Assembly (NCBI GenBank): GCA_965657915.1
Contig: CBFHPN010000006.1
Span: forward strand, 3,057-67,056
Length of the DNA stretch: 64,000 bases
Direction: 5' to 3'
DNA from: Acholeplasmataceae bacterium
Lineage (GTDB): Bacteria > Bacillota_I > Bacilli_A > Acholeplasmatales > Acholeplasmataceae
Every line of letters begins with the position of its first letter. Position 1 is the first letter of the stretch. The position numbers and the translations under genes were made by a program. This document shows positions 2,592 through 40,035 of this stretch, in pieces. Below the pieces are notes generated by a model that did no database searches, was not told the DNA's origin, and worked only from the letters and a program-made list of their open reading frames with translations.

Positions 2592-2613
2592 CCAAATTAA
2601 TTGGCTATTTTTT
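2583..2613. terminator. bidirectional intrinsic terminator
   Basis: atagccaa-attaa-ttggctat hairpin flanked by an A-run and a T-run, between convergent genes. Confidence 0.7.
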
Positions 2614-3353
2614 TATATGTTCATAAAACGGGATAAAAATGTTTTCGTTCTCTCTTTTTTTGGAGATATAAAAAGTTGATCTTGAGGTTGAATCTCAATA
2701 ATTTCACCTTGGTCCATATAGACAACACGATCTGATATTTCTTTAGCAAACGCCATCTCATGCGTGACAATTACCATCGTCATCCCTGTTTTGGCAACAT
2801 CTTTAATGACCTTTAAAACGTCACCTACCATTTCTGGATCAAGTGCACTTGTAGGCTCATCAAATAGCATAATATCTGGATGCATCATCAGGGCTCTTGC
2901 AATTGCAACACGCTGTTTTTGACCACCTGATAATGTTTGAACAGATTGATAGGCAAAGCTTTCAAGACCAACAAGTGATAATTTATCTATTGCCTCTTTA
3001 CACGTTTCTTCATGACTTTTCTGTAGTAATTTTTTTGGCGCTAAAATGAGATTATCGATCACATTTAAATGATTGAATAAATTGAAACTTTGAAACACCA
3101 TGCCCATATTCATGCGGTGTTTATTGATATCAATGGTTGGATCCATTAAATTTTGATTATGATATAAAATTGAGCCACTATTGGGGTGTTCTAATAAATT
3201 TAAACATCTTAATAATGTGGTTTTACCAGAACCAGAAGCACCAATAATCGAAACAACTTCACCTTTGTTGATATCTAAAGAAACCCGATTTAAAACAAGA
3301 TTGTCTCCAAAGGATTTTTCTAGGTTTTCAACTTTTAATAACACATCACTCAT
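2613..3353 (-). CDS. polar amino-acid ABC transporter ATP-binding protein
   Basis: Walker [10 protein letters not shown], signature [15 protein letters not shown], Walker [12 protein letters not shown]. GlnQ/ArtP-like length. Confidence 0.9.
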
Positions 3354-4093
3354 ACCATTGCTTCCTTTCTTAGAGACGTTTTTTCAAACTTGTTTACAAG
3401 TAGTGATGCAATGAGTGTCATACTTAAATATAAAATCGCTGCAATAAAAAAGCCTTCAGTTGTTCTGTAATTAGGAGAGGTTGCAAGTTGCGTTGCTCTA
3501 AATAATTCTGTGACACCAATGACAGATAAAACAGAGGTATCTTTTAAATTAATAATGAATTCATTGCCGATCGCAGGTAAAGATTGTCTGATTGCTTGTG
3601 GCAACACAATCAATTTCATCGACTGAGCGTGAGAAAACCCTAACGATCTTGAGGCTTCAAGTTGACCATGATCAACACCATTAATACCACTTCTTAATAC
3701 CTCAGTAATATAGGCAGTTGTATTTAACGTGACAACAACAAATCCAGCAACCAGTGGTGTCCAAAAACTGATTTGAAGTCTTGATAACCCATAATAAAAG
3801 ATCATTGCTTGAACCATCATCGGTGTCCCTCTAAAGATCGTAATATAAATATTGATGAATTTTTGAGAGACAATGGTAAAGAAAATAGATACTTTGGATT
3901 GTCTCAAAGTATCTATTTTTGTTGTCCTTACAATCGTGAAAAAGAAGGCGATGATAAAACCGCCAACTGTTCCAATGACCGATAACATAATGGTATAGAA
4001 AATGCCTGTAAAAAAGAATTGTTGATAGGTTGTAATTAAATACCAAACAGTCTCAAAAAAAGCATCTCTAGGAGGTAAAGAAGCAAGAATCAT
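3350..4093 (-). CDS. amino-acid ABC transporter permease (His/Glu/Gln/Arg/opine family)
   Basis: Multi-TM protein. Contains an EAS..LG-type EAA loop ([24 protein letters not shown]). Overlaps the ATPase start by 4 nt. Confidence 0.85.
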
Positions 4094-4923
4094 TATTGTG
4101 GTTGACGCGTTAACGCAGCTTCCATATAATCATTTCTAGTTTCTGTTGAAATTGCATTTAAGGCATCATTAATGGCTGATAATAACGCCGTATCTTCTTG
4201 ACGCAATGCAACCGATACTGTCACATCTTCAGGTGTGACAGTAAAGCCAGAACCATCCGTAAATGTGATAAAACTTAAATTTGAATTCGCCGCAACAATA
4301 CCCATTGCGACAGGCAATTCTGCAACAAATCCATCACTTGCATTATTTAATAACGCAGTCACAAGCGATGCATAATCATTAAGTGCTGCTTGATGATTCA
4401 CACCCGTAATTTGATCGATAAGATCATCTTGAAGTGTCCCTAATTGAGCAACAATTCTTGCACCATTAAAATCATCTAAAGATGTTGCATCTGCATAGTT
4501 ACCATCATTACGAACAACCATGACTTGTTCACTTTGGAAATATGGATCACTAAATGCAACTGTTTGTGCACGTTCTGATGTTGGTGACATCCCTGCAATG
4601 ATTAAATCAATTTCGCCAGCGAGTAATGCTGGAATTAATCCGTCCCATTCGATTGCACGAATTACAAGCGTTAACCCAAGCGCATCTGCAATTTCTTGTG
4701 CCATCACAACGTCAAACCCATCTGCATAAAATCCGGTTTGGTTTGCGATTGGAACTGTAAAACCATTTTCTGTAGGCGTTGCCCAGTTAAAAGGTGCATA
4801 AGCAGCCTCTAAACCTACAACAATCTCAGTTTCTGAGGTGATATCAAAACCACTCTCTGTACTACATGCACTAACTGTAACCACAGCAGTGAATAAAACG
4901 ATGAGTAACAATATTTTTCTCAT
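4093..4923 (-). CDS. amino-acid ABC transporter substrate-binding lipoprotein (predicted lysine-related because of the upstream L-box)
   Basis: ORF track 4093..4977. I prefer ATG 4923 (MRKILLLIVLFTAVVTVSAC, signal peptide plus lipobox Cys) with GAGGAAG upstream. Family-3 SBP-like sequence. Confidence 0.85.
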   Translation of the reverse strand: MRKILLLIVLFTAVVTVSACSTESGFDITSETEIVVGLEAAYAPFNWATPTENGFTVPIANQTGFYADGFDVVMAQEIADALGLTLVIRAIEWDGLIPALLAGEIDLIIAGMSPTSERAQTVAFSDPYFQSEQVMVVRNDGNYADATSLDDFNGARIVAQLGTLQDDLIDQITGVNHQAALNDYASLVTALLNNASDGFVAELPVAMGIVAANSNLSFITFTDGSGFTVTPEDVTVSVALRQEDTALLSAINDALNAISTETRNDYMEAALTRQPQ

Positions 4924-4955
4924 ACTCTCTTCCTCTTTTCTTTGTTTTTTTAACA

Positions 4956-5027
4956 AAAAAAGCATCCAAGAGGACACCTAACGATCAATGGGTTAAATTG
5001 ATTAGCGCCTCTACAAATGTAGGAGTA
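4956..5027 (-). terminator. expression-platform hairpin plus U-run of the lysine riboswitch
   Basis: Minus-strand RNA ..CAUUUGUAGAGGCGCUAAUCAAUUUAACCCAUUGAUCGUUAGGUGUCCUCUUGGAUGCUUUUUUU. This is a long imperfect hairpin (AUCAAU/AUUGAU, AGAGG/CCUCU, CAU/AUG) followed by U7, just upstream of the SD. Confidence 0.55.
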
Positions 5028-5160
5028 CCGTAAGTATTTCTTACAGTCCCATAATTCAACTATGCCTAATTGAATTATTCGGCGATGATTACCTTTCCAA
5101 TTTTTCTAAGAATGCCTTCTCCAAATTGTACTTATTTACACCGCAGCCTCTAATGCTCTT
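5028..5160 (-). promoter_or_regulatory. lysine riboswitch (L-box) aptamer
   Basis: The minus-strand RNA UUAGAGGCUGCGG..AAGUAC..UUUGGAGAAGG..GGAAAGGUAAUCAUCGCCGAAU..UGGGACUGUAAGAAA matches block for block the B. subtilis lysC L-box as I recall it (AGAGGUGCG, AGUA, UUGGAGA, GAAAGG..CGCCGAA, CUGUCAAGAAA). A TATAAT sits at 5181..5176 on the minus strand. Confidence 0.8.
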
Positions 5161-7219: not shown

Positions 7220-7251
7220 AAAAAAGCGATGTCTAAGACATCGTTTTTTTT
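7220..7251. terminator. bidirectional intrinsic terminator
   Basis: aaaaaa-gcgatgtc-taa-gacatcgt-tttttttt between convergent genes. The MATE stop codon lies inside the hairpin. Confidence 0.75.
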
Positions 7252-8585
7252 AACTTTTTAAAGATTGCAAGTGTAATAAAATAGAGTAAGAAGGTAGCGA
7301 GCCAGTTAATCACAACAATCCCGTACCATACACCGTCAATTCCCAAATTAAAAGTTGTACCTAAAAGTGGAAAAATAAGTAGTGGTAATAGTTGTCTAAA
7401 TATCCCAATGATAAGTGCAAATAGAGGTTTTTTAATTCCTTGTAAAGCGGATGTATTGACATTGATGATCAAGTACGTGACAAACCCTATCGTATCAATT
7501 CTTAAATACCGAGCACCAATTCTAATAACATCAGGATTAGAATTGAAGATGGACATGAGTAGTGGTGCAAAAATAAAGACGATGACACCACCCGTGATCA
7601 CCAACAGCAGCCCCATTTTCATGGCTGTTTTTTTAGTTTCAGCCATTCGATCAAACTGTTTAGCGCCTAAGTTTTGTCCAATAATCGTAATAATGGCAAC
7701 GTTGAGTCCAATCGAAGGGAGAAGCGCGACTTGTTGGATTCTTAAAGCTGCACCATAAGATGCAACTGAAATATCGCCTCCATATAATAAAACATAGTAA
7801 TTAATAATAAAAACACCAATTGCAATCGCTGCTAAGTTTAATGAAGAAGGGATACCTTGAACAAAGATATCTAACATAACTTTTGGAGATGAATCTTTAA
7901 TAGACATCTTTTTAATGTCAAATAGTTCTGATTTTAATACGTGAGACCCCATATAAATTGTGCCGAAAGATTGAACAAGAATGGTTGCTAACGCAACACC
8001 TTGGGTTCCAAGTTCAGGAAGTCCAAACCATCCAAATATAAAAAGAGGATCCAAAATTAGATTTAAGAAAAACCCGATGACTAAGTAATTTCTAAAAGGT
8101 TTTGTATTACCTTGAGACGAAAGTATCGCATTAAAGACAAAATTCAATAAAAAGAAAATGGCTCCAATAAAAATCGTATTTGTATAGTCTAGTCCGTATT
8201 GAAGTGCTTGACCTGAAGCACCAGCAAGTTCAAACAGAGGTGTGATGATATTAGGTAACACAAAAATAAATAGCAATCCAAAGAATAAACTGATGAGGAG
8301 CGCATTTAAAATGAGTTTATGAAAATCATGAATTTCTTTTTTACCAAGTGCAACAGAAATTAAAGCAGTAAGACCATTTCCAAACCCCGATGCTATGGCA
8401 ATGATAATAAAGAATATAGGAAATGATAACGTTAATCCAGATAAAGCATCGGTTGAGATTTGGCCTGCGAAAATAGTATCGACAACATTAAAAAAAGTAT
8501 TAAACAAAAAACCAATCGATGTAGGGATTGCGATACGTTTAATGTGTTTTGAGATGGATCCCTGAGTTAAATTTGATTGTTGCAT
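7233..8585 (-). CDS. MATE family efflux transporter
   Basis: ORF track 7233..8681. I prefer ATG 8585 (MQQSNLTQGSISKHIKRIAIPT), the typical MATE N-terminus. 12 TM segments. Confidence 0.85.
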   Translation of the reverse strand: MQQSNLTQGSISKHIKRIAIPTSIGFLFNTFFNVVDTIFAGQISTDALSGLTLSFPIFFIIIAIASGFGNGLTALISVALGKKEIHDFHKLILNALLISLFFGLLFIFVLPNIITPLFELAGASGQALQYGLDYTNTIFIGAIFFLLNFVFNAILSSQGNTKPFRNYLVIGFFLNLILDPLFIFGWFGLPELGTQGVALATILVQSFGTIYMGSHVLKSELFDIKKMSIKDSSPKVMLDIFVQGIPSSLNLAAIAIGVFIINYYVLLYGGDISVASYGAALRIQQVALLPSIGLNVAIITIIGQNLGAKQFDRMAETKKTAMKMGLLLVITGGVIVFIFAPLLMSIFNSNPDVIRIGARYLRIDTIGFVTYLIINVNTSALQGIKKPLFALIIGIFRQLLPLLIFPLLGTTFNLGIDGVWYGIVVINWLATFLLYFITLAIFKKLKKTMS

Positions 8586-8691
8586 GATGACCTCACTAAA
8601 TTCATCATATATAAAAAAATCAGATAAGTCTATTTGAATGACTTTACAAGATTTATTTTTTATAACTTTACAAGACAACAAAAAGGCGATG

Positions 8692-8700
8692 TGTTATAAT
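8692..8700 (+). promoter_or_regulatory. extended -10 (TGTTATAAT) of the nqr-like operon
   Basis: Exact TGnTATAAT about 48 nt upstream of ATG 8748. Confidence 0.5.
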
Positions 8701-8747: not shown

Positions 8748-9668
8748 ATGCAAAATCAAGAACACCGTCATTTAGGACACATCCTAAATAACAAAAACAT
8801 GTACATTCTTACAGCGTTTTTAGTAACTTTACTTATTATTTCAGCATTTATTTATAGTTTTTATGTTGTGATATTAGGTCTTGTTGCCGTGGTTGTTGCT
8901 GTAGTAGTAGAGTACTTGTTTTCTTACTTTAGAAAAAAGCCATTTGAAATGACAGGCATTTTTGTAACACCACTTATTTTGACGTTACTGATGCCACCAG
9001 AACTGCCTATATTTATGGTCGCTGTCGGATCATTTTTCTCAGTATTTTTCGGAAAAATGATTTTTGGAGGATTAGGAAAAAATTTATTTAATCCAGCAAT
9101 TGTTGGCTATTTATTCTTAATTATTACATTTCCTGTAGAACTTACGACGCAGTATATTGTTCCTGGAACAGATTTGTTTACATCAGCGACGTTACTTCGT
9201 GATAGAAGTTTTGGTTTATCACTCACCAACATTAGCGATGTTTTACTTGGGGGATATGCCGGAACCATTGGTAATACATTTAAGTTAGGCGTTATCATTT
9301 TAGGATTAGGGTTAGTCGTATTAAAAATCAGTGATTGGCGTATACCATTATCGATATTAGTATCACTTGTTGTGTTCACATTTTTATTCGATGCGATTTA
9401 TCCTGAAAAATTCCATGAAGGGCTCATGTCTATTTTTGTCGGTGGATCATTATTTGCAGCATTCTTTGTCGCAACTGACCCTGTGTCTGCACCGTTTACA
9501 AATTGGGGCAAAGTGATTTATGGTGTTGGAATTGCATTCATTACAGTGATTATTCGAGGACTTGCTGCATTTCCAGAAGGGTTTATTTTTGCAATCATCA
9601 TTATGAATTCAATCGCACCAATGATTGATTCTATGAAATGGGTTCAACCTAAGGAGGTTACAGCATGA
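8748..9668 (+). CDS. nqrB: NqrB/RnfD family membrane subunit (RnfD-like size)
   Basis: ORF track 8736..9668. The second ATG (8748) has better spacing from GGAGG. Polytopic protein. TSATLL aligns with the S/T-x-AT flavin-attachment motif of RnfD/NqrB. Confidence 0.75.
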   Translation: MQNQEHRHLGHILNNKNMYILTAFLVTLLIISAFIYSFYVVILGLVAVVVAVVVEYLFSYFRKKPFEMTGIFVTPLILTLLMPPELPIFMVAVGSFFSVFFGKMIFGGLGKNLFNPAIVGYLFLIITFPVELTTQYIVPGTDLFTSATLLRDRSFGLSLTNISDVLLGGYAGTIGNTFKLGVIILGLGLVVLKISDWRIPLSILVSLVVFTFLFDAIYPEKFHEGLMSIFVGGSLFAAFFVATDPVSAPFTNWGKVIYGVGIAFITVIIRGLAAFPEGFIFAIIIMNSIAPMIDSMKWVQPKEVTA

Positions 9669-10288
9669 AACAATACATTAAAATGTTATCGTTTGTTTTC
9701 ATTATGGGTTTTCTAACCTCAATTGTATTTGTAGGCATGGACGCTTTAACTGCAGAAAGAATTGAAATGAACAAAGATGCAGCGATTTATTCTGCAGTCC
9801 TTACACACAATGACATCACGTATAATTCAGGGAATTTAGCAGAAGTATTTAATGACAATATTACTGTAGAAGAAGTAACTTACAACGGTCAATTGCTCTC
9901 TTTTTACATCAATGAAGTGAATGGGAACGTTTCATTTCTTTATGGTGTATTTTCATTGGGTGGATTATGGGGACCAGTTCGTGGTGTGATCACCTTAGAA
10001 AGTGATTTTCAAACCATTGTAAATGTTACCGTATTAGAAGAGCAAGAAACACCAGGTCTTGGTGGAAAAGTTAAAAATAGAGAATTTTTAGATCAATTCA
10101 TAGGGTTACAACTACTTCCAGAACTTGAAAGACCTGTTGAAGTGAATAAAGACGCAGCAGCAAATAAAGCAAATGAAGTTGATGAAATTTCTGGTGCTAC
10201 TGGAACTTCAACTGCATTTGAAAGATTACTGAATGATAGTTATCAAATTTACCGTGATTTATGGCTTAATCGTGGAGGAGCATCATGA
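9665..10288 (+). CDS. nqrC: NqrC/RnfG family FMN-binding subunit
   Basis: ATGA overlap with the upstream gene. N-terminal anchor helix. DEISGATGTSTAF contains the SGAT covalent-FMN motif. Confidence 0.75.
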   Translation: MKQYIKMLSFVFIMGFLTSIVFVGMDALTAERIEMNKDAAIYSAVLTHNDITYNSGNLAEVFNDNITVEEVTYNGQLLSFYINEVNGNVSFLYGVFSLGGLWGPVRGVITLESDFQTIVNVTVLEEQETPGLGGKVKNREFLDQFIGLQLLPELERPVEVNKDAAANKANEVDEISGATGTSTAFERLLNDSYQIYRDLWLNRGGAS

Positions 10289-10902
10289 AACTGATACGTT
10301 TAAGATATAAAAAATGGTTTAATGTTTTAAGAGATGGATTTAAATCAAATAACCCAGTATTTGTTGCAGTACTTGGGATTTGTAGTTCACTTGCCATTAC
10401 GAATACAGTTGCAAATGCAATCGCGATGGGACTTGGTGTTACATTTGTTGTCATGTTAAGTTCGGCAACAGTGTCACTTTTAAGAAGTTTTATTCCGTCT
10501 AAAGTGAGAATGGTGACATACATGGTCATCATCTCAACCTATACGATTGCCGTTCAAATGTTTTTACAAGCATATTTCCCTGACATATATTCAGCACTTG
10601 GTGCTTATGTAGGATTAATCATTACCAATTGTATTGTCATGGGACGTGCAGAAGCGTTTGCAGTAAAAAACCCGGTAAGATATACACTTGTTGATGGATT
10701 TGCAAGTGGTATGGGATATATGTTTGTGTTAATTTTAGTATCAATTATTAGGGAGCCGCTTGCTTTTGGTACATTGCTAGGATATCAAGTAATGCCTGAA
10801 GGATTTACGCCTTGGGTAACCATGGCAATTGCGCCAGGTGGATTTTTCATTCTTGGTGTCTTCATTTGGATACTTAGAGACTGGGCTAAAACATATGAAT
10901 AA
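10285..10902 (+). CDS. nqrD: NqrD/RnfE family membrane subunit
   Basis: ATGA overlap. Conserved Cys pair (LGICSSLAITN, IITNCIVMGRAEAF) as in NqrD/RnfE. Confidence 0.8.
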   Translation: MKLIRLRYKKWFNVLRDGFKSNNPVFVAVLGICSSLAITNTVANAIAMGLGVTFVVMLSSATVSLLRSFIPSKVRMVTYMVIISTYTIAVQMFLQAYFPDIYSALGAYVGLIITNCIVMGRAEAFAVKNPVRYTLVDGFASGMGYMFVLILVSIIREPLAFGTLLGYQVMPEGFTPWVTMAIAPGGFFILGVFIWILRDWAKTYE

Positions 10903-10913
10903 AGGAGAAAGAC

Positions 10914-11483
10914 ATGTTTGATTTATTATTAGATTCAATACTAAGTAGTAATATTGCACTAACCTTTATTTTGGGGATGTGTCCACTCATTGCGATTTCT
11001 ACAAATGTCAAAAATGCTAGAGGGATGGGAATTGCAGTTGTCTTAGTTGTGACATTAACAGCGATGATCAATTGGCCAATCTTCCAGTTATTAAAAACAA
11101 CAAATACAGAACAAGTAATGTTACTTGCATTCATTATTACAATTGCAGCAACCGTTCAAATCTTAGAAATATTAATGGAAAAATTCTTACCACAACTATA
11201 TAACGCATTTGGTATTTACTTACCACTCATTACTGTGAACTGTGTCGTTCTTGCAGTGTCACAATTCTTTGTGAATAGAGATTATAATTTTGTTGAGACA
11301 ACAACATTTGCGTTTGGTAGTGGTGTTGGTTGGTTACTTGCGATTGTATTAGTTGCTTCACTTAGAGAAAAATTAGCAGTATATGGTGATTTACCTAAAG
11401 GGTTACGAGGAAAAGCAATTGTATTTTTAATTTTAGGAATTTTATCACTCGCATTTATTGGATTTAGAGGATTATCATTCTAA
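10914..11483 (+). CDS. nqrE: NqrE/RnfA family membrane subunit
   Basis: Conserved Cys pair (ILGMCPLIAIS, ITVNCVVLAVS). 189 aa with 6 TM segments. Confidence 0.8.
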   Translation: MFDLLLDSILSSNIALTFILGMCPLIAISTNVKNARGMGIAVVLVVTLTAMINWPIFQLLKTTNTEQVMLLAFIITIAATVQILEILMEKFLPQLYNAFGIYLPLITVNCVVLAVSQFFVNRDYNFVETTTFAFGSGVGWLLAIVLVASLREKLAVYGDLPKGLRGKAIVFLILGILSLAFIGFRGLSF

Positions 11484-11505
11484 TGCTTAAGGAGGAAAAC
11501 AACAT

Positions 11506-12588
11506 ATGAATTTATTTTTCCCGGTTGTCATTATTGGTGTACTGACTGTCATTACTTTAATCTTAATCGTCTTAGACAAAGTGATGGGCGGAAGTAGCGA
11601 GAAAATGATCACCATTAATAACGATACTCAAATCGCTGTGTATGGAGATGATACTGTTCTTTCCACACTTGCGAGCAATAAAATATTCATTCCATCTGCA
11701 TGTGGTGGTAAAGCGACATGTGGCTTTTGTAAGTTTAGACTCATTGATAATGCTCCAGACGTAAAACCAACTGAAGAACCATTTTTATCTAAAGAAGAAA
11801 GAGATCATGGTGTTCGTTTATCTTGTCAAGTCAAAGTTAAAGAATCACTTAACATCGAACTTCCATCATCACTTTTAACTGCAAAAGAATATCAAACAGT
11901 TGTTTCTCACGTTGAAGATTTAACCTATGATATTAAGCTTGTTCGTTTTGAAATGATAGAGCCTAAAACTGTTGATTTTAAACCAGGTCAATATATGCAA
12001 ATTAAAGTACCTGGTATTGATATCATCCGTGCGTATTCACTAGCATCTAATGCGAGTGAAAAAAACTATGTTGAGATGCTTATTCGCTATGTGCCAAATG
12101 GTGCAGCAACAACATTTGTTCATAAAGCTTTAGAAGAGCAAGATAAAATCATTTTAACCGGACCTTATGGAGACTTCTTCTTACAAGAAAAATCAGAACG
12201 TCCAATTGTATGTATCGCAGGTGGCTCAGGAAAAGCGCCAATTCGTTCGATCTTATTTAGATTAAAAGAACTCGGTATGACAAGAAAAGTCAAATATTTC
12301 TTTGGCGCACGTGCTGTAAGAGACTTGTATTATACTGAAGAACTCATGCAACTTCAAAAAGAATTCCCAAACTTTGAATACATTCCAGCGTTATCAGAAC
12401 CACTTGAAGAAGATAACTGGCAAGGTGCAACAGGTCTTATTACAGATGTATTAGACCGTATGACAGGTGATTTAAAAGATCACGAAGCGTATTTATGTGG
12501 ATCACCAGGAATGATTGATGCATGTATTAAAGTCTTAAATAAGCATGACATTCAAAAAGAAAATGTCTACTACGACAAATTCTCATAA
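11506..12588 (+). CDS. nqrF: NqrF-type subunit: TM anchor, 2Fe-2S ferredoxin domain and FAD/NADH-binding reductase
   Basis: N-terminal helix; SACGGKATCGFCKF..LSCQV (Cx4CxxC...C); RAYSLAS (RxYS FAD motif); IAGGSGKAP; ALSEPLEEDNWQGATGLI, close to the V. cholerae NqrF ALSDPQPEDNWTGYTGFI as I recall it. Confidence 0.8.
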   Translation: MNLFFPVVIIGVLTVITLILIVLDKVMGGSSEKMITINNDTQIAVYGDDTVLSTLASNKIFIPSACGGKATCGFCKFRLIDNAPDVKPTEEPFLSKEERDHGVRLSCQVKVKESLNIELPSSLLTAKEYQTVVSHVEDLTYDIKLVRFEMIEPKTVDFKPGQYMQIKVPGIDIIRAYSLASNASEKNYVEMLIRYVPNGAATTFVHKALEEQDKIILTGPYGDFFLQEKSERPIVCIAGGSGKAPIRSILFRLKELGMTRKVKYFFGARAVRDLYYTEELMQLQKEFPNFEYIPALSEPLEEDNWQGATGLITDVLDRMTGDLKDHEAYLCGSPGMIDACIKVLNKHDIQKENVYYDKFS

Positions 12589-12624: not shown

Positions 12625-12625
12625 G

Positions 12626-12648
12626 AAACCGGGGAACCGGTTTTTTTA
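12626..12648 (+). terminator. intrinsic terminator after nqrF
   Basis: aaccgg-ggaa-ccggtt followed by T7. Confidence 0.65.
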
Positions 12649-12662
12649 TTTGGGAAGGTTAT

Positions 12663-13568: not shown

Positions 13569-14433
13569 TTTAGTAAAAAGAAATATGATCAATTACTTCT
13601 ATGATAAAACATCAATCTTTTTTAGTATGTTAAGTGTCTTTCTACTTATTCTTGTTTATGTCTTATTTTTAGGTCAACTTCAAGTGAATACTGTCATTGA
13701 AGAAGTCGGTGATATTGATGGAATCAGTGGACTTATTAATAGTTGGTTGGTTGCTGGTCTAATCGTTACCTCTTCAGTCACGGTTCCTATGGCGACCATG
13801 AGTGACATTGTTACAGATAGAGAAAACAAGGTCTTCCAAGATTTTTATATTGCACCAATCAAACGATCAGCGATCGTCTTTGCATATCTTATCTCGTCAG
13901 TAATTATTGGTGTGATGATGGCAACACTTACTTTCTTATTAGGTATGATTTACGTTGGGATCAGCTCAGGTATTTGGATTTCTGTATTTTCTATATTTCA
14001 GATGTTTATCGTCATTATCTTATCATCAACGTTATTTGCAAGTTTAAGTTTTGTTGTCTTATCTTTTGTTAAAACAACATCAGCTGCAGGCACGATTAAT
14101 ACATTAATCGGAACGATGATTGGTTTTTTTGCAGGGATTTATGTTCCATTTGGTGCTTTTAATAGTGCGTTATTACGTCAAATATTGGAAGTCAATCCAG
14201 CAGCTCAAGTGGTCACATTATTACGATCCATTATGATGACACCTTATTTAGAGATTGTATTTGAAGGTGCACCAGTATCAAGTTTAGAGGGATATAAAGA
14301 AGCGTATGGTGTCACAACCACATTTTTCGGTAATTCTATTTCAGGAGTTACCATTGGACTTTTCATCATTGGATGGATTATAATTTTCATAACGATAGGA
14401 ATTACTAGACTTAAAGCATATAAGGAGATTTAA
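13552..14433 (+). CDS. ABC-2 type transporter permease
   Basis: ORF track 13543..14433. GTG 13543, ATG 13546 and ATG 13552 are all possible starts; 13552 has the best spacing from AAAGGTGA. 6-TM permease overlapping the ATPase gene. Confidence 0.75.
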   Translation: MNVIYNLVKRNMINYFYDKTSIFFSMLSVFLLILVYVLFLGQLQVNTVIEEVGDIDGISGLINSWLVAGLIVTSSVTVPMATMSDIVTDRENKVFQDFYIAPIKRSAIVFAYLISSVIIGVMMATLTFLLGMIYVGISSGIWISVFSIFQMFIVIILSSTLFASLSFVVLSFVKTTSAAGTINTLIGTMIGFFAGIYVPFGAFNSALLRQILEVNPAAQVVTLLRSIMMTPYLEIVFEGAPVSSLEGYKEAYGVTTTFFGNSISGVTIGLFIIGWIIIFITIGITRLKAYKEI

Positions 14434-15779
14434 TGGACGTAATATTTAAAGCTCAGCGCTCTTTTTATCTGACGCAAGTAACAAAATCTTTTGAATTTAG
14501 ATATCAACAACTCGATAAATTAAAAAGTGCTGTCAAACAAAATCAAGATGATATTATTAAAGCACTTTATAAAGACTTACATAAATCAACGTTTGAGGCA
14601 TATGTAACTGAAATTGGATATATTTTAAAATCGATTACTTTTTTTCAAAAACATTTAAAGTCATGGATGAAAATAAAGAAGGTTAAAACACCTTCTTTTC
14701 AACTATTCACAACATCATACATACAGCCAGAACCCAAAGGACAAGTCTTAATTATTGGCCCATATAATTATCCATTTCAACTTGTTATTGAACCATTAAT
14801 AGGTGCAATCGCTGCAGGTAATACCGTGATGATCAAGCCAAGTGAATTTACACCAAATGTCGCAAATATCATTGAGAAAATCATCAAGGAAACATTTGAT
14901 GAAAATTATATTAAAGTCATTCAAGGTGGCATTGAAGTCAATCAAGCACTTCTAGAATTACCGTTTAATCATATCTTTTTTACAGGATCAACCAACGTTG
15001 GCCAAATCATCTATGAAAAAGCTGCAAAAAAACTAATCCCTGTGACATTAGAACTTGGAGGAAAAAGTCCTACGATTGTCGATGAAACAGCGCATCTTAA
15101 AGTAACAGCGCGACGCATTATTTATGGTAAGTTTTTAAATGCTGGTCAAACGTGTATCGCACCAGATTATATCTATGTTCAAAAGTCCATTCAAAAAGCA
15201 TTTGAAAATGTCTTACTCGAGACATTATCAGAATTTTATCCTGATTATGAATCAATGACACATGTTGTATCTGATCAACATGTGGAAAGATTAAAAAAAT
15301 TAATCGATAAGAAAAAAGTGATTCATGGAGGAAACATTACAGATAGACATATTGAACCAATCATCATGAGCAATGTTACGTGGGAAGATAACGTGATGCA
15401 AAATGAGATTTTCGGTCCTATTTTACCAATTTTAACATTTGAAACATTAGAAGAAGTGATCCAAATATTACATGAAAAAGATCAACCACTCGCCTTGTAT
15501 ATGTTTTCTACCAATAAGAAAAACATCAAACGTATCTTCAGTGAAATCTCTTTTGGAAATGGCGCGATAAACGATACCATTATGCAAGTCGTTAATCCAC
15601 ATATTCCATTTGGAGGTATTGGCTCAAGTGGTATTGGTCAATACCATGGAAAAGCTTCATTCGAAGTGTTTTCACACATGAAATCATATGTCAATCATTC
15701 AGTAAAAATTGATCCACCGATTGCGTATCCACCCTATACAAAGAAAAAAGAGAAACTCATTAAAAAAATACTAAAATAA
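14433..15779 (+). CDS. aldehyde dehydrogenase, class 3-like (NAD(P)+)
   Basis: TAATG overlap with the permease gene. ELGGKSP (catalytic Glu) and NAGQTCIAPDY (catalytic Cys). 448 aa. Confidence 0.85.
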   Translation: MDVIFKAQRSFYLTQVTKSFEFRYQQLDKLKSAVKQNQDDIIKALYKDLHKSTFEAYVTEIGYILKSITFFQKHLKSWMKIKKVKTPSFQLFTTSYIQPEPKGQVLIIGPYNYPFQLVIEPLIGAIAAGNTVMIKPSEFTPNVANIIEKIIKETFDENYIKVIQGGIEVNQALLELPFNHIFFTGSTNVGQIIYEKAAKKLIPVTLELGGKSPTIVDETAHLKVTARRIIYGKFLNAGQTCIAPDYIYVQKSIQKAFENVLLETLSEFYPDYESMTHVVSDQHVERLKKLIDKKKVIHGGNITDRHIEPIIMSNVTWEDNVMQNEIFGPILPILTFETLEEVIQILHEKDQPLALYMFSTNKKNIKRIFSEISFGNGAINDTIMQVVNPHIPFGGIGSSGIGQYHGKASFEVFSHMKSYVNHSVKIDPPIAYPPYTKKKEKLIKKILK

Positions 15780-20227: not shown

Positions 20228-20257
20228 TGTGTTATGTTATACTACACATGTAATACA

Positions 20258-20365
20258 ATCTTCAGGGCAGGGTGCAATTCCCGATCGGCGGTAAAGTCCG
20301 CGAGCCTACGGGCAGGATTTGGTGAAATTCCAAAACCGACAGTATAGTCTGGATGGGAGAAGATA
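20258..20365 (+). promoter_or_regulatory. FMN riboswitch (RFN element)
   Basis: CUUCAGGGCAGGGUGCAAUUCCCGAUCGGCGGUAAAGUCCGCGAGC...GGAUUUGGUGAAAUUCCAAAACCGACAGUAUAGUCUGGAUGGGAGAAG matches the RFN consensus. TATACT -10 at 20238..20243. Confidence 0.9.
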
Positions 20366-20395
20366 TGGTTTTTTAACCTTATTTTTTACTTTACT

Positions 20396-20425
20396 ATGCC
20401 CTGAAAATGGGCATTTTTATTTTTA
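20396..20425 (+). terminator. FMN-riboswitch attenuator terminator
   Basis: atgccc-tgaaaa(t)-gggcat followed by a T-rich run, immediately before the ribD SD. Confidence 0.7.
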
Positions 20426-20438
20426 TTAGGAGTGAATC

Positions 20439-21509
20439 ATGAATGAAATTTACATGAATAAAGCACTAGAACTTGCAAAAAAAGGAGGACTTCATGTTAA
20501 ACCTAATCCTCTTGTTGGCGCAATCATTGTAAAAAATAATGAGATCATTGGTGAAGGATATCATCAACAATACGGACACGCTCATGCTGAAATTAATGCT
20601 TTTTTAAACGCTAAAGAAGATGTTACAGGTGCAACGATGTATGTGACATTAGAACCTTGCAGTCATGAAGGAAAAACAGGATCATGTGCTAAAAAAATCA
20701 TTGAAAAAGGGATCAAAGAAATTTATATTGCGTCATCAGATCCAAATCCATTAGTCTCTGGTAAAGGCATTCAAATGTTAACAGATGCCGGTATTCAAGT
20801 TCATCTGGGCTTATGTCAAGATGAAAGTGATCATATCAACAAACACTTTTATCATTACATTACAAAAGATAGACCATATGTCTTATTAAAGATGGCACTG
20901 ACGCTAGATGGAAAATATGCAACCGATCATTTTGATAGTGCATGGATTACGAACGAAAGTTCTAGAAATGATGTACATGTCACAAGATCACATTATCAAG
21001 CCATGATGGTTGGACTCAATACTGTGATTCAAGATGATCCGAAGCTCAATATAAGATTAGAACACTATACAGGAAAACAACCGATTAGAATCATTTTAGA
21101 TCCAAAAGGGGATATACCTATGAATCGCCACGTCATTCAAGATGAATTAGAAACTTGGATCATCACCTCATTGATGTCAAAAGATAAGCAAAAAAAGATT
21201 GAACATTTTGGTAACCGGGTTATTTATGTTGATCTTAAAGACGAGGCCCTCGACTTAAAAGATGTATTAAACAAAGTGCACAAACTAGGGATTCAAAATA
21301 TGATGGTTGAAGGTGGTAAAACACTTCATGAAAGTTTTATAAGAGATCAATTATTTGATGAAGTACAAGCATATATAGCACCAAAGTTTATTGGTGGCAC
21401 TCAAACACTTCAACATTTAAACATTTCAAAGATGAGTGAAGCACTTGAATTAAATGATGTTTCATTTCAAATTTTTGATGACAATATAAAAATTACTGGG
21501 AGAAAATAA
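20439..21509 (+). CDS. ribD: bifunctional riboflavin biosynthesis deaminase/reductase RibD
   Basis: HAEINA...PCSHEGKTGSC deaminase zinc motif plus a C-terminal reductase domain. First gene after the RFN element. Confidence 0.9.
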   Translation: MNEIYMNKALELAKKGGLHVKPNPLVGAIIVKNNEIIGEGYHQQYGHAHAEINAFLNAKEDVTGATMYVTLEPCSHEGKTGSCAKKIIEKGIKEIYIASSDPNPLVSGKGIQMLTDAGIQVHLGLCQDESDHINKHFYHYITKDRPYVLLKMALTLDGKYATDHFDSAWITNESSRNDVHVTRSHYQAMMVGLNTVIQDDPKLNIRLEHYTGKQPIRIILDPKGDIPMNRHVIQDELETWIITSLMSKDKQKKIEHFGNRVIYVDLKDEALDLKDVLNKVHKLGIQNMMVEGGKTLHESFIRDQLFDEVQAYIAPKFIGGTQTLQHLNISKMSEALELNDVSFQIFDDNIKITGRK

Positions 21510-21511
21510 TT

Positions 21512-22123
21512 ATGTTTACAGGAATTATTCAAGATGTCGGAACAATCACATCGATAAAAAAAGGATCTAACTCTCAACAAATCACCATCGAAACATCCAT
21601 TTTAGAAGATGTTCACATTGGGGATTCGATTGCAGCCAATGGGCTATGCCTTACAGTCACGACGTTAAAAGATACCACCTATACAGTCGATGTAATGGCA
21701 GAATCACTAAGAAGATCTAATTTAGGAAGTTTAGACGTCGGATCAAAGGTAAATCTAGAAAAAGCGATGGCAATGGGAGATCGCTTTGGAGGTCATATGG
21801 TTTCTGGTCATATCGATGATGTCGGTACCATTTCAAAAACGTTTGTTGAAGATAATGCGACATGGGTGGACATTGATGTACCGGATCATTTAAGAAAATA
21901 TTGTATTTTAAAGGGATCCATCGCGATTGATGGGATTAGTTTAACAATTTCAAGATTAACTGATAAAGGCGTTTCTGTTTCTATTATCCCGCATACAAAA
22001 GACCAAACAACGCTACTATCTAAAAAAATAGGCGATCATGTCAATTTAGAAATGGACATGATGATTAAATACGTTGAAAAGTTATTACAACCGACTAAAG
22101 AAAATTTAACAAAGGAGAAATGA
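21512..22123 (+). CDS. ribE: riboflavin synthase (alpha chain)
   Basis: [11 protein letters not shown]-terminus and an internal duplicated barrel (NGLCLTV / DGISLTI). Confidence 0.9.
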
Positions 22124-22127
22124 GAAG

Positions 22128-23339
22128 ATGATGGCGATTAAACTTAATACCATTGAAGACGCAATCTTAGATATTCAATTAGGTAAGATGGTCATTGTCG
22201 TTGATGATGAAGATCGAGAAAATGAAGGTGATCTTGTCATGGCAGCAGAAAAAGTGAGACCTGAAGATGTCAATTTTATGGCGACTTATGGTAAAGGACT
22301 CATTTGTGTTCCACTCAAAGAATCAAACGCTCAAAAACTAGGTTTAGATGAAATGGTTAAAAAAAATACCGATGTGTTTAGAACGAATTTTACAATATCA
22401 GTTGATGCAATCGATACAACAACAGGTATATCTGCAAAAGAACGCGCACATACAATTCAAATGTTGGTTCATGATAAAGCGACTGATCGAGACTTTAGAA
22501 AGCCTGGACATATCTTTCCCCTCATTGCTCAAGAAGGTGGTGTATTAAAACGTGCTGGCCATACTGAAGCAAGTATTGATCTTGCATTACTTGCTGGATT
22601 AAAACCTGTTGGTGTCATTTGTGAAATTATGAATGATGATGGATCCATGGCAAGACTTGACGATTTAATGATGTATAAAGAAAAACATCAATTGAAAATC
22701 ATTTCAATTCAAGATTTAATCGAATATAAAAGAAAAAAAGAAACCTATATTACACGTTCAGCAAGTGCAGTGATGCCAACCATTTCGGGTGAATTTGAAA
22801 TGGTTGGGTATGAAAATATATTAAATAAAGAACATCACGTTGCACTTGTAAAAGGTGATGTTAAAGGTAAAGAAGATGTTTTAGTAAGAGTACACTCTGA
22901 GTGTTTAACGGGAGATGCATTTGGATCTTTACGTTGTGATTGTGGAGATCAACTTCATGCAGCGATGCATACGATTGAAGAAGAGGGATTAGGCATTGTT
23001 TTATACATGAGACAAGAAGGCAGAGGGATTGGGTTAATTAATAAAATTAAAGCATACCATCTTCAAGATCAAGGGTATGATACCGTTGAAGCTAATTTAA
23101 AATTAGGCTTTAAAGATGATTTAAGAGATTATGGTATTGGTGCACAGATTTTAGCGGATTTAGGCGTGAAATCGATAAGATTAATGACGAACAATCCAAG
23201 AAAAATCGTTGGACTAGAAGGCTATGGCATTAAAATTTCTGACCGAGTATCCATTCAAATGAATCATAATGAAAGAAATGAATTTTATTTAAAAACAAAA
23301 AAACAAAAACTTGGGCATATGCTCGACATAAAGGAGTAG
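22128..23339 (+). CDS. ribBA: bifunctional 3,4-dihydroxy-2-butanone-4-phosphate synthase / GTP cyclohydrolase II
   Basis: [12 protein letters not shown] (DHBP synthase) and [19 protein letters not shown] (GCH II zinc site). Confidence 0.9.
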
Positions 23340-23341
23340 AG

Positions 23342-23803
23342 ATGAAAACAATTGAAGGAAATTACATGGGTAAAGGTTTAAAAGTTGCGATCGTGATGAG
23401 TCGTTTTAATGAGATGATTGTTAAACAACTTGTTGAAGGTGCAAAAGATGGTTTAATCAGACACGGTGTTGATGAAAAAGACATCACAGTTGTTGCAGTA
23501 CCTGGTGCATATGAAATTCCACTGGCAGTTAAAAAAGTGGCAGAATTACAATCATATGATGCGATTATTGCATGCGGTGCAGTCATCCGTGGTGCAACCC
23601 CACACTTTGATATGGTTGCTAACGAAGTAACGGGTGGTATTGCGAAAGTTTCTCTTGAAAGTGGTGTCCCAGTCATTAACGCAGTTCTCACAACTGATTC
23701 TATTGAACAAGCAATTGAACGCGCTGGAACAAAAGCAGGAAACAAAGGATTCGATGCAGCTTTATCAGCCATAGAAATGGTAAATGTCATAAATAATCTA
23801 TAA
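23342..23803 (+). CDS. ribH: 6,7-dimethyl-8-ribityllumazine synthase
   Basis: [10 protein letters not shown]...VPGAYEIP...[12 protein letters not shown]. Confidence 0.9.
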
Positions 23804-24647: not shown

Positions 24648-26108
24648 CTAAGATATTTTTTCAATGTGTAGTTTTGAGTTAATTAAGTGGCTTTCTTTAG
24701 TATCTTCATCCATTTTATTTAATAAGTTAACCATCATGGACATTCTAGGGTTAGATTTTAAAGTATCTTTATGTTTGTCTATGAAATTCCAATACAAACC
24801 GTTAAACGGACAAGCCTTTTCACCAGTTTTTATGGTTGGATCGTATTTACAACCCTCACAATAGTTACTCATTTTCTTTATATAAGACGCACCAGATATA
24901 TATGGTTTTGTTGACATTAAGCCACCATCAGCATATAACCCCATTCCCATAACATTAGGTGTGACAACCCAATCAAATGAATCAATATATAGGCTATTAA
25001 ACCAATCATTGACTTCAATCGGGTTGACACCTATAAGATTCGCATAATTGGATAAAATCATAAGTCTTTGAATATGATGGTTATATCCATTTTCTAAAGT
25101 TTCTTCAATGGTATGTGATAAACAGGATAAATCTGTATTTGCACTCCAATAAAAAGCAGGTAAAGAGTGGTGATGTTTTAAAGCGTTTTTGTCATGATAA
25201 TCCGGTGTATTTAAATACACGCCACGGATATATTCCCGCCAACCAAGAACTTGTCTGATGAAGCCTTCAGCAGGTTGAATTTCACAGACGCCATCATGAT
25301 ACGCTTGTTCGACTGCTTTAATCACATCCATGGGACTAAGTAGACCTAAATTCAAAGAAGAAGAAATAAGCGCATGCGACATGAAAGGCTCATGTTTAAT
25401 CATGACATCTTGATGATCACCAAACGTTGAAAGTCTGTAGTCAATAAAATGTTTGAGTGCTTGATTTGCTTGAGCGTGAGAAACAGGATAAATAAACGTA
25501 TCCAAATTACCTGGATGATCACTAAATAAAGCGTTTGTCCAATCAATTGATTGTTGCGTTAAAACATCGATTTCAAAGGTTAAAGGTTCATGAAAACGCA
25601 ATCCCTTTTTAAAGGGTTTCCTATTATCCCCGTCAAAGGAAAATTTACCGCCAATAGGTAAATCATGATGCATTAAAATTTGATGTTTGTGTCGAAGCTT
25701 TCTGTATATTGTATCCATTTTCCATGGTTGTTTAGAAAGTAAAACTTTCCATTCATCTCTCGATACGATAAATAATGGATCATCAACATATGTAACATTC
25801 GTTAATGGTTTTATAAAGTTAAAATCAGCGTAATCATTAGGTAAAAATACATACGTTTGTGCGTGATTGTATGTCTCATAGAATGTATTTAAATCTTCAA
25901 TCAAAAGGTAACTCAAAGGATATGTTTTTTGATATGTGTCAATAAAATGTAGTATTGCACTATGATGAAGTGCAATTCTTTTTTTATGATATAGATGTCT
26001 CTTATAAAAAGATAGATGCTCAAATACAATAATTTCATCAAATTCAATATTGAGATGATTAATATAGGTTTGATTCAGTTGAAATGGAAACAATAATAAA
26101 GTTTTCAT
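24648..26108 (-). CDS. FeS-cluster cryptochrome/photolyase family protein (FeS-BCP; CryB/PhrB (6-4)-photolyase-like)
   Basis: HHIQRLMILSNYANL..VNDWF..YIDSFDWVVTPNVMGM..ADGG..KPYISGASYIKKMSNYCEGCKYD...KACPFNGLYWNF parallels R. sphaeroides CryB as I recall it. Four Cys (SCLSH, CEGC, ACPF) fit the 4Fe-4S ligands. Confidence 0.8.
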   Translation of the reverse strand: MKTLLLFPFQLNQTYINHLNIEFDEIIVFEHLSFYKRHLYHKKRIALHHSAILHFIDTYQKTYPLSYLLIEDLNTFYETYNHAQTYVFLPNDYADFNFIKPLTNVTYVDDPLFIVSRDEWKVLLSKQPWKMDTIYRKLRHKHQILMHHDLPIGGKFSFDGDNRKPFKKGLRFHEPLTFEIDVLTQQSIDWTNALFSDHPGNLDTFIYPVSHAQANQALKHFIDYRLSTFGDHQDVMIKHEPFMSHALISSSLNLGLLSPMDVIKAVEQAYHDGVCEIQPAEGFIRQVLGWREYIRGVYLNTPDYHDKNALKHHHSLPAFYWSANTDLSCLSHTIEETLENGYNHHIQRLMILSNYANLIGVNPIEVNDWFNSLYIDSFDWVVTPNVMGMGLYADGGLMSTKPYISGASYIKKMSNYCEGCKYDPTIKTGEKACPFNGLYWNFIDKHKDTLKSNPRMSMMVNLLNKMDEDTKESHLINSKLHIEKIS

Positions 26109-27463
26109 GAGCGGCTCACTTTTTTTACAGGTTTAGGATAGTTTTGAATACCATATAAAATACGTTCTTTTTCTGAGAATTCACTTATTTTATATTTTAA
26201 TGGATTCGGAACATCTTTTATTTCGGGTAAAAAAACATCTAAAAATTGACAGTTTGTATCATAACGTTCTCCTTGCGTGATGTAGTTAAACATTCTATTT
26301 TCTCGAGGATCATTTCCTAGCCCTGCGTTATAGAGCCAATTGAGGGTATTAGAAGAAACGTCATAATCAATCAAATAAGATTCAAAAAATGCAGCACCGA
26401 TACGCCAATCTTGATTTAAAAATTTCGTTAAAAAATTAGCAACATTTTGTCTTCCTCTATTCGACATATATCCAGTTTGAACAAGTTGCCTCATATTTGC
26501 ATCAATGAGTGGATACCCTGTTTTTCCCTCTTTCCATGCTGTAATAAAGTATTGATTAGGAGAAATATGATGTGATTGTGACAACCCTGCTTGATTGAAA
26601 ATACGATTGTGATATTTTTTGTGAGTAAAATAAAAGTAATCACGCCATAGTAACTCAAAATAAATCCAATAAGTCGAATCATTTTTAACATAAGTTGCTT
26701 CATACTTTTTAACCTCATTCATAATACGATTAACAGATAATGCACCCATTGAGAGATAAGCTGAAAATTTCGTGGAATCATTAAAATTCAACATACCATT
26801 ACGAGTTTCTTTGTATGTTTTTGCAAGTTGATCATTAAATAAATAATTTGTTAAATGGTTTAATGCTGCAGTTTCACCAGGTTGGATGTAGTGATTGATT
26901 TGTAAAATATTCAGATCATCTAAATTCGGAATATCGCTTTCTATAGATATTTTTGGTTGTTGAACTAAAGTGTCACACTCTTTAAAATTAACAGGAAATC
27001 GTTCGATTTTATGTCTAAATTGTGTAAAAACAAATGGCAAATCTTCTATTGAAAAAGGCAGCATATGTGTTTTGTAAAGTGGTTTCATTTCCTCATGATA
27101 GGTCGGTATGTTTAAGGTGGAAATGAAATCATATCTTTTTCTTTCCTCCTCACCAGGTAGTTTTTCAAAATATATAGATTCTATATTAAGTTCTCTAATC
27201 AATTCTTTTAATATAAAAGCAAAGTCCCCTTTTTTTACAAGAAGCGGAATATTCAATGTATTCAGTTGCTGATTTAAATCGAGCAATGTATCATATAAAA
27301 AAGACAACCAAGGATCACTTTTCTTTTTGAACCCAAAATTATTGAGATTAAACCAAGCTTCATCAAATACAAAAAGTCCCACTACTGAACCACTTTCCAG
27401 TGCTTTTTTCAGCAAAGGTTGATCATGGATTCGCAAATCATTTTGAAAGAGGTAAAGGTTCAT
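26105..27463 (-). CDS. DASH-type cryptochrome
   Basis: MNLYLFQNDLRIHDQPLL N-terminus; TGYPLIDANMRQL; GYMSNRGRQNVANFL; DYDVSSNTLNW. ATGA-coupled to the downstream FeS-BCP gene. Confidence 0.8.
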   Translation of the reverse strand: MNLYLFQNDLRIHDQPLLKKALESGSVVGLFVFDEAWFNLNNFGFKKKSDPWLSFLYDTLLDLNQQLNTLNIPLLVKKGDFAFILKELIRELNIESIYFEKLPGEEERKRYDFISTLNIPTYHEEMKPLYKTHMLPFSIEDLPFVFTQFRHKIERFPVNFKECDTLVQQPKISIESDIPNLDDLNILQINHYIQPGETAALNHLTNYLFNDQLAKTYKETRNGMLNFNDSTKFSAYLSMGALSVNRIMNEVKKYEATYVKNDSTYWIYFELLWRDYFYFTHKKYHNRIFNQAGLSQSHHISPNQYFITAWKEGKTGYPLIDANMRQLVQTGYMSNRGRQNVANFLTKFLNQDWRIGAAFFESYLIDYDVSSNTLNWLYNAGLGNDPRENRMFNYITQGERYDTNCQFLDVFLPEIKDVPNPLKYKISEFSEKERILYGIQNYPKPVKKVSRS

Positions 27464-27474
27464 ATAAACTCCTA

Positions 27475-27483
27475 TGTTATAAT
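27475..27483 (+). promoter_or_regulatory. extended -10 (TGTTATAAT) placed 7 nt before the arcA ATG (leaderless mRNA predicted)
   Basis: TGnTATAAT ends at 27483 and the ATG is at 27490. There is no SD in between. Confidence 0.5.
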
Positions 27484-27489
27484 CATACT

Positions 27490-29606: not shown

Positions 29607-29615
29607 GATTTTCTC

Positions 29616-29645
29616 CTAAAAAAAAGACTAAGTTTCCTTAGTCTT
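29616..29645 (-). terminator. intrinsic terminator immediately after the heliorhodopsin gene
   Basis: Minus-strand RNA agacuaag-gaaa-cuuagucu followed by U8. Confidence 0.75.
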
Positions 29646-29654
29646 TAGTATAGC
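29646..29654 (-). promoter_or_regulatory. extended -10 (TGCTATACT, minus strand) for the tocopherol-cyclase-like gene, abutting the terminator
   Basis: The reverse complement of agtatagca is TGCTATACT. The predicted start site lies inside the first hairpin arm. Confidence 0.4.
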
Positions 29655-29659
29655 ATATC

Positions 29660-40033: not shown

Positions 40034-40035
40034 TC

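Follow-up and report, generated by a model that had tools for sequence, protein, structure and literature searches.

The question raised by the locus described here is what becomes of the electrons of NADH in a membrane complex of the RNF/NQR superfamily (NQR, Na+-translocating NADH:quinone oxidoreductase) that carries an NqrF-type NADH module and a full membrane core, with no NqrA, RnfC or RnfB encoded in its vicinity. The locus lies in an Acholeplasmataceae bacterium (GenBank assembly GCA_965657915.1, contig CBFHPN010000006.1, positions 3,057 to 67,056 of the forward strand), and this whole stretch of 64,000 nucleotides is referred to below as the window. Positions 8748-12588 hold five intact, co-directional and tightly packed open reading frames (ORFs) in the order B-C-D-E-F (Table 1). 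The operon is a well-conserved further example of an already reported NqrBCDEF type that lacks NqrA and, judged from its sequences, it is a member of a lineage within the superfamily that is neither canonical NQR nor RNF. ATGA overlaps join the genes at the B/C and C/D junctions, and a GGAGG-type ribosome-binding site stands ahead of all five. A second in-frame ATG at 8736 would give B 310 residues; GGAGG lies 5 nucleotides ahead of 8748, and the resulting 306-residue form is also used in public gene calls. The original prediction had described a B-C-D-E-F operon with an extended -10 element, ATGA couplings, a terminator and a divergent MATE gene, in which an Rnf-sized membrane core is joined to an NqrF-type NADH module and NqrA, RnfC and RnfB are missing from the window. 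The layout is borne out by direct reading and the composition by ORF lengths, Pfam and structure alignments. The absence agrees with a Pfam search of all ORFs of at least 100 residues across the 64 kb, in which no match to NQRA_N, NQRA_SLBB, RnfC_N, Complex1_51K, RnfB/Fer4 or ApbE was found, nor any quinone biosynthesis gene.

The cofactor and ion sites were checked by alignment to solved NQR and RNF structures, and residue numbers are counted from those alignments. The flavinylation motif of B, DLFTSAT, pairs with DGYSGAT of Vibrio cholerae NqrB (T236), and that of C, DEISGAT, with DGLSGAT of V. cholerae NqrC (T225), C itself consisting of an N-terminal transmembrane anchor and an extracytoplasmic FMN_bind domain. 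The Fe-S ligands are likewise in place, as the Cys residues of GICSS and ITNCIV in D (equivalent to NqrD C29 and C112) and of GMCPL and TVNCVV in E (equivalent to NqrE C26 and C120). F comprises a transmembrane anchor, the CGGKATCGFC...C motif of a 2Fe-2S ferredoxin, an RAYS motif for flavin adenine dinucleotide (FAD), the EDNWQG block and an NADH domain. Acidic residues corresponding to D346 and D397 of V. cholerae NqrB, D133 of NqrD and E95 of NqrE are kept in B, D and E, respectively; these are the residues that we take to be tied to Na+ transport. The Fe-S Cys residues and the acidic residues are invariant over about 150 loci drawn from all groups. Taken as a set, the flavin mononucleotide (FMN) motifs of B and C, the four Cys of D and E, and the 2Fe-2S, FAD and NADH sites of F are those of Na+-NQR.

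The resemblance to the V. cholerae enzyme (NqrABCDEF; PDB 7XK3, 8A1U) thus extends over homologous B to F subunits, their FMN motifs, the four Fe-S Cys, the NqrF module and the acidic residues, but that enzyme has NqrA, a B subunit about 100 residues longer at its N-terminus and a 31-residue insertion in F (V. cholerae NqrF residues 176-206), none of which is present in the window. The alignment of B begins at about residue 129 of V. cholerae NqrB, and B measures 387-451 residues in canonical NQR loci as against 306 here. The RNF complexes of Clostridium tetanomorphum and Acetobacterium woodii (RnfCDGEAB; PDB 7ZC6, 9ERK) have membrane cores of similar size to that of the window, but in RNF ferredoxin enters via RnfB, whereas in the operon considered here NADH would enter via the NqrF-type module, which stands at the operon end in place of RnfB, and both RnfC, which has FMN, NAD+ and two 4Fe-4S sites, and the poly-ferredoxin RnfB are missing. 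Profile scores give the same picture, no subunit reaching the curated cut-off of either an Nqr equivalog or an Rnf subfamily. Against the NCBIfam equivalogs, B reaches 181.6 (NqrB cut-off 414), C 86.7 (NqrC cut-off 352; 77.9 with TIGR01938, cut-off 144), D 214.8 (NqrD cut-off 235), E 191.9 (NqrE cut-off 247.55) and F 270.2 bits (NqrF equivalog TIGR01941, cut-off 295); against the TIGR Rnf subfamilies the values are 200 for RnfD (cut-off 207), 56.7 for RnfG (102), 180 for RnfE (213) and 172.5 for RnfA (229). Searches against PDB chains gave 142 bits with RnfD and 124 with NqrB for B, 39 with RnfG and 46 with NqrC for C, 160 with RnfE and 155 with NqrD for D, and 133 with RnfA and 169 with NqrE for E. 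Canonical Na+-NQR was rejected as a class on the lack of NqrA in the window, the short B, the sub-cut-off scores and a position outside the NQR clade, and RNF on the lack of RnfC and RnfB in the window, the scores and a position outside the RNF clade. The two-subunit NQR/RNF-like systems (Meheust 2021; PMC8238504, PMC10979944) share with some relatives of the window operon, 8 of the 15 Mollicutes loci, a B-like subunit that has no flavinylation site, but in the two-subunit systems the B-like domain is fused to an NAD-binding domain and there is no D, E or separate F; in the window B holds PF03116 alone and all five subunits are separate, which excludes this class as well. What the operon does have is the combination typical of the NqrBCDEF lineage without NqrA, namely the B-C-D-E-F order, a transmembrane-anchored F of about 360 residues that lacks the NqrF insertion, and a short B (about 300-350 residues).

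This lineage is large. A search of 1.84 billion representatives yielded many transmembrane-anchored F proteins of 350-375 residues, distinct from canonical NqrF (405-430 residues) and from soluble oxygenase reductases, with at least 7,900 protein clusters at E <=1e-30 in the F-type search; the closest F proteins are from metagenome-assembled genomes of Acholeplasmataceae. Scanning GTDB species genomes with a 9-sequence NqrF alignment gave at least 599 confirmed loci, and the architecture counts that follow refer to the best 80, which come from Acholeplasmataceae, Izimaplasma, Tissierellales, Clostridia, Spirochaetota, Planctomycetota (anammox bacteria included), Omnitrophota, Kiritimatiellia, Cloacimonadota, WOR-3, Syntrophales and others. 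Of the 80, 72 lie on contigs that cover the whole operon, and every one of these has the order B-C-D-E-F; the other 8 are cut by a contig end. In the majority architecture, BCDEF+X (54/80), a soluble protein of about 150 residues, X, is encoded 10-25 bp after F and carries the motif ...HxxxxHGFxEGxGSxFR... (L010:11120-11590, L011:11121-11597 and L012:6451-6912 are examples, with 51 more loci). X matches no family in Pfam or NCBIfam, was not found in a six-frame translation of the whole window or in any Mollicutes locus, and may be either a sixth subunit or an assembly factor in this majority sub-lineage. Hybrids form a second architecture (5/80), in which a gene for an RnfC-like subunit of about 500 residues stands at or overlaps the start of B (Table 1); the subunit has RnfC_N and Complex1_51K domains and two CxxCxxCxxxC (4Fe-4S) motifs, and its FMN loop, GxGGAxFPT, has degenerated to S-L-D-x-x-G-I-P-T. 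The hybrids are closest to the window operon in D, E and B, and the short F and short B are common to both, but they keep the RnfC-like subunit that the window lacks, and in the nearest non-Mollicutes relatives of the window its gene overlaps the start of B. Bare BCDEF operons make up the third type and comprise all Mollicutes loci plus a few others. All 15 Mollicutes loci have five intact genes in the same order within differing flanks. As a separate observation, two metagenome contigs with six-gene NQR operons, long B and long F (L122, L160) encode an NqrA with two CxxCxxCxxxC motifs, which the other 13 NqrA proteins examined lack.

The descent of the bare operon was addressed with neighbour-joining trees (200 bootstraps) of D+E (148 taxa) and D+E+B (122 taxa). 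Reference operons of canonical NQR and RNF, with more of the BCDEF type, came from a metagenome scan with a D-subunit alignment, the V. cholerae NQR and the C. tetanomorphum and A. woodii RNF sequences were transcribed from PDB alignments, and L128, an RNF locus with an over-long B ORF, was treated as RNF in the paralogue-rooted trees. The window operon falls outside an RNF clade with bootstrap support of 1.00 (in both D+E and D+E+B) and outside an NQR clade with the same support that unites 14 six-gene loci, V. cholerae and a few partial contigs; BCDEF+X, together with some bare loci, forms a further clade at 1.00. The RnfC-like hybrids and the Mollicutes group together (0.90 for D+E, 0.93 for D+E+B, and 0.98 in both for a subclade without L031), and within this group the 15 Mollicutes loci, the window included, are a single clade that branches from within the five hybrids, with the Tissierellales hybrid as its sister (0.70). 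When D was rooted by E and E by D, the NqrF-bearing types formed one clade against RNF (0.84 and 0.79) and NQR was monophyletic (0.93 and 0.68), the three BCDEF groups joining weakly (0.39-0.53). On the order of NQR, BCDEF+X and the hybrid-plus-Mollicutes group, the D+E+B and single-protein trees disagree, with support of 0.4-0.6.

Because the Mollicutes clade is nested among operons that keep the RnfC-like subunit, the window operon is best regarded as a derived form, a secondary reduction, and the nesting points to the ancestor of the Mollicutes as the stage at which the RnfC-like Fe-S subunit disappeared. The original prediction had named a placement of all subunits inside ordinary six-subunit NQR clades as one outcome that would tell against it, which is not what the trees give; of its suggestion that the operon might be a minimal or intermediate form, the first half stands and the second does not, an ancestral intermediate being ruled out for the window operon by the same nesting (0.90-0.98). 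It is rather the hybrids of an RnfC-like subunit with NqrF that look like intermediates between RNF and NQR. We infer that the NqrF module was acquired once, in an ancestor still holding an RnfC-derived subunit, and that the X lineage and the Mollicutes later lost this subunit in separate events.

Within the Mollicutes clade it is B that has changed most. The functional residues had been predicted to be kept, and in the window they are, but the flavinylation motif of B is absent in 8 of the 15 Mollicutes loci (L005, L006, L017, L018, L022, L024, L025 and L030) and degenerate in L019 and L020, being intact in the window and in L013, L014, L016 and L023. The same position is occupied by T or S in each of 93 B subunits from BCDEF+X, RnfC-like hybrids, NQR and RNF and in 16 of 17 other five-gene loci. 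Because so many Mollicutes loci do without it, the need for the B motif is doubtful. Mean pairwise identity in the Mollicutes is 0.42 for B and 0.67 for F (B/F 0.63), compared with 0.448 and 0.509 in BCDEF+X (B/F 0.87-0.88) and 0.55 and 0.533 in the RnfC-like hybrids (B/F 1.03). Across the Mollicutes, D, E and F retain 66-73% identity and every ligand, and the flavinylation motif of C is found in 12-13 of the 15 loci. In Acholeplasma oculi ATCC 27350 (L025:6204-8669) C has grown to 821 residues with five tandem FMN_bind-type units, whose motifs read DAITGAT, DGFGGAT (twice), DGYGSAT and DGYASAT, which suggests a multi-flavin chain on the cell surface. This pattern suggests that the return branch via B came under relaxed constraint after the loss of its cytoplasmic partner. 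Given the loss of the B motif, the fast evolution of B and the five-motif C of A. oculi, electrons may exit at the outer FMN of C, and F to D/E to C may be the essential path in Mollicutes.

The search for a substitute output module was carried beyond Pfam. No A-like ORF was found in the first 24 kb of the window or in the 15 Mollicutes loci, for which flanks of up to 10 kb per side were covered, several contigs being much shorter, and neither apbE nor a quinone gene is conserved next to the operon in those loci. A profile search for RnfC-like proteins at E <=1e-20 returned 313, and no Mollicutes appear among the named hits in the best 120, a weak test in that most hits are nameless; those that are named belong to Omnitrophota, Elusimicrobia, Endomicrobiia, Planctomycetota and similar groups.

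With these results in hand we favour, with moderate confidence, the reading that the operon encodes a five-subunit membrane-bound flavin/Fe-S NADH dehydrogenase which has lost its RnfC-like subunit and whose output would be flavin-terminated at the membrane surface. By homology with the solved NQR and RNF structures, NADH would pass a hydride to the FAD of F, from which single electrons would move through the 2Fe-2S cluster of F to an intramembrane Fe-S centre with the four Cys of D and E as ligands, and then cross the membrane to the covalent FMN of C on the outer face. In the window, where the B motif is intact, they could go on to a covalent FMN in B, and, to judge by the acidic residues conserved in B, D and E, the complex may export Na+ or H+. 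Because the complex has no cytoplasmic output module of the NqrA or RnfC type, the terminal acceptor would not be such a module, and our best guess is that electrons would be delivered at the membrane surface to O2 or to an external or lipophilic acceptor, perhaps straight from the outer FMN of C. Counted in favour of this reading is that the window also encodes an NADH-making pyruvate dehydrogenase (PDH) complex, a Na+/H+ exchanger and a riboflavin operon preceded by an FMN riboswitch. Several points weigh against it. A partner subunit, ApbE or quinone genes could lie elsewhere in the genome, beyond the 64-kb window; B may bind flavin non-covalently where its motif is lost; with the B motif retained in the window, electrons may still run the whole way from C to B here; an acceptor on the cytoplasmic side, or a quinone, is possible; the deep nodes of the trees are weak (0.4-0.6), and these trees are neighbour-joining rather than likelihood-based; and all members of the lineage are known from their genes alone.

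The reading can be pushed further, to a Mollicutes complex that is an outward-directed pump in which electrons leave the surface FMN of C to O2, free flavins or acceptors of the host or environment and the B branch is vestigial, a proposal that we regard as speculative and somewhat unlikely. Acholeplasmas have a classical membrane-bound NADH oxidase activity, and it is plausible, as a prediction, that the complex is this Acholeplasma oxidase; if the outward pump were true, the complex would be the molecular identity of that activity, and the wider lineage, with its RnfC-like and NqrF hybrids and its BCDEF+X operons, would record a stepwise transition from RNF to NQR. A full-text literature search for Acholeplasma together with NqrF returned nothing, and one for the A. 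laidlawii NADH oxidase with quinone nothing useful.

The simplest alternative to a flavin-terminated output is a plain Na+-translocating NADH:quinone (menaquinone) oxidoreductase without NqrA, in which riboflavin in B reduces membrane quinone. NqrA has neither a cofactor nor an assigned direct function, and in NQR it is the riboflavin of NqrB that hands electrons to quinone, with no carrier in between (PMC12174285). The window shows no damage to the B motif or to any of the cofactor ligands upstream of it, and mevalonate and isoprenoid genes adjoin the operon in one relative. Yet this B lacks the N-terminal extension of NqrB, its flavin site is eroding within the Mollicutes clade, and the window yielded no gene for quinone biosynthesis. 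Acholeplasmas, moreover, are described as being without respiratory quinones. Those who found the operon without NqrA also held the acceptor to be unknown or possibly lower in potential than quinone (PMC4148951, PMC5924567), and on this evidence quinone reduction seems unlikely. Less probable again is a six-subunit complex, whose cytoplasmic output module would be supplied by an RnfC-like, NqrA-like or X-like gene relocated elsewhere: the window covers 64 kb of a genome of about 1.5 Mb, the closest non-Mollicutes relatives have the RnfC-like subunit, most of the wider family has X, and some organisms carry a separate full rnf operon beside NqrBCDEF (PMC5924567, PMC4148951), but no A-like or X-like ORF turned up in the window or the 15 Mollicutes loci, no Mollicutes was named in the best 120 of the 313 RnfC-like proteins, and the fast evolution of B with loss of its flavin motif fits a real loss of the docking partner. 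That the operon is a decaying remnant without redox function is highly improbable. It is true that a subunit is gone and that relatives show erosion of the flavinylation site of B, but five intact ORFs with translational coupling, a promoter-like site and a terminator, the strong conservation of D, E and F with every ligand kept, and an identical architecture in 15 of 15 loci speak against it; pseudogenisation is ruled out by the intact, conserved ORFs, as is an assembly artefact by the recurrence of the architecture on many independent contigs.

Papers of 2014 and 2018 had already described NqrBCDEF without NqrA, Tenericutes included, in Thermotoga (Pseudothermotoga) thermarum and lettingae, Clostridium ultunense, 'Ca. 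Izimaplasma' ZiA1 and Acholeplasma palmae (PMC4148951, PMC5924567, PMC6256511); the C. ultunense operon was noted in 2018 (PMC5924567), as was that of ZiA1, with a pointer to A. palmae (PMC6256511). Like the window operon, those published have the B-C-D-E-F order, no nqrA and NqrF as the point of NADH entry, with the acceptor given as unknown. The comparison is by published description, and the window belongs to the bare Mollicutes sub-clade; our genome scan recovers the architecture in Izimaplasma and Acholeplasmataceae loci. Operons of this kind were counted as NQR in a large flavinylation survey because NQR was there defined by the presence of NqrF alone (PMC8238504), and they are not treated in a 2014 evolutionary study (PMC4014512) or in a 2025 review of RNF and NQR (PMC12174285). 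The 190-residue 'NqrC' of Treponema denticola, which was flavinylated in Escherichia coli by an ApbE-type enzyme (PMC4436053), may belong to the same NqrF-anchored lineage.

Textbooks present this superfamily of redox pumps through two members, RNF and NQR, and the NqrA-less lineage anchored by NqrF is very common among anaerobes and wall-less bacteria. Databases give its proteins the name 'NQR' ahead of any identified electron acceptor, so that metabolic reconstructions built on an NADH:quinone activity may be mistaken. Mollicutes may depend on the complex as their chief membrane route for NADH re-oxidation and Na+ export, and the clade offers a natural experiment on what the core can do without an output module. 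The hybrids of an RnfC-like subunit with NqrF, the NqrA proteins with Fe-S motifs and the BCDEF+X operons provide a concrete series on which the origin of NQR from RNF can be tested.

Table 1. Coordinates of the operon, its signals and other features (positions refer to the window unless a locus is named)
Feature	Position	Strand	Remarks
B subunit (NqrB/RnfD homologue)	8748..9668	+	306 residues; Pfam NQR2_RnfD_RnfE
C subunit (NqrC/RnfG homologue)	9665..10288	+	207 residues; Pfam FMN_bind
D subunit (NqrD/RnfE homologue)	10285..10902	+	205 residues; Pfam Rnf-Nqr
E subunit (NqrE/RnfA homologue)	10914..11483	+	189 residues; Pfam Rnf-Nqr
F subunit (short NqrF type)	11506..12588	+	360 residues; Pfam Fer2+FAD_binding_6+NAD_binding_1
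Promoter-like site AAGACA-17-TG-TATAAT (TG-extended)	8672..8700	+	10/12 consensus matches; a consensus match alone, shuffled versions of the region holding more such sites
Terminator-like hairpin GAAACCGG-GGAA-CCGGTTTT then T-run	12625..12654	+	downstream of F
MatE gene	7233-8681		divergent, upstream of operon
RnfC-like gene (Tissierellales)	L026:5494-6984
RnfC-like gene	L028:279-1790
RnfC-like gene (Anammoxibacter)	L031:4708-6240
RnfC-like genes (Omnitrophota)	L033:5571-7070; L052:4616-6118
Aldehyde dehydrogenase	14433-15779; L005:5740-7086; L006:11177-12511		also in L018 and L030
Amino-acid ATP-binding cassette (ABC) transporter (binding protein, permease, ATPase)	2613-4977	-
Lysine riboswitch	4995-5160	-	88 bits; upstream of amino-acid ABC transporter
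Photolyase or photolyase-related genes (three)	24648-27463 and 33010-34386
Tocopherol-cyclase-like gene	28638-29606
Heliorhodopsin	29660-30541	-
Phytoene-desaturase-like gene and SQS_PSY gene	30574-32995

Turning to the surroundings of the operon, the sole neighbour that recurs in Mollicutes is an aldehyde dehydrogenase (5/15 loci), which in three loci lies beside amino-oxidase/CrtN-like and ICMT/PEMT-like genes and for this reason may belong to carotenoid metabolism and not to the complex. At 20254-23803, 7.7 kb downstream of the complex, an FMN riboswitch (113.6 bits) precedes a ribD-ribE-ribBA-ribH operon, and the same rib operon is found near the BCDEF operon in L006 and L007. The region 36479-46161 encodes an Orn/Lys/Arg decarboxylase, an agmatinase-type arginase, the complete PDH complex (E1 alpha, E1 beta, E2 and E3) and the Na+/H+ exchanger, which together provide a context for NADH production and Na+ cycling. 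Three consecutive ORFs on the minus strand at 47852-50318 (204, 301 and 316 residues) have no Pfam match at E <=1e-5. An arginine deiminase is encoded at 27400-28641, and a light-related cluster, the members of which are listed in Table 1, occupies 24648-34386.

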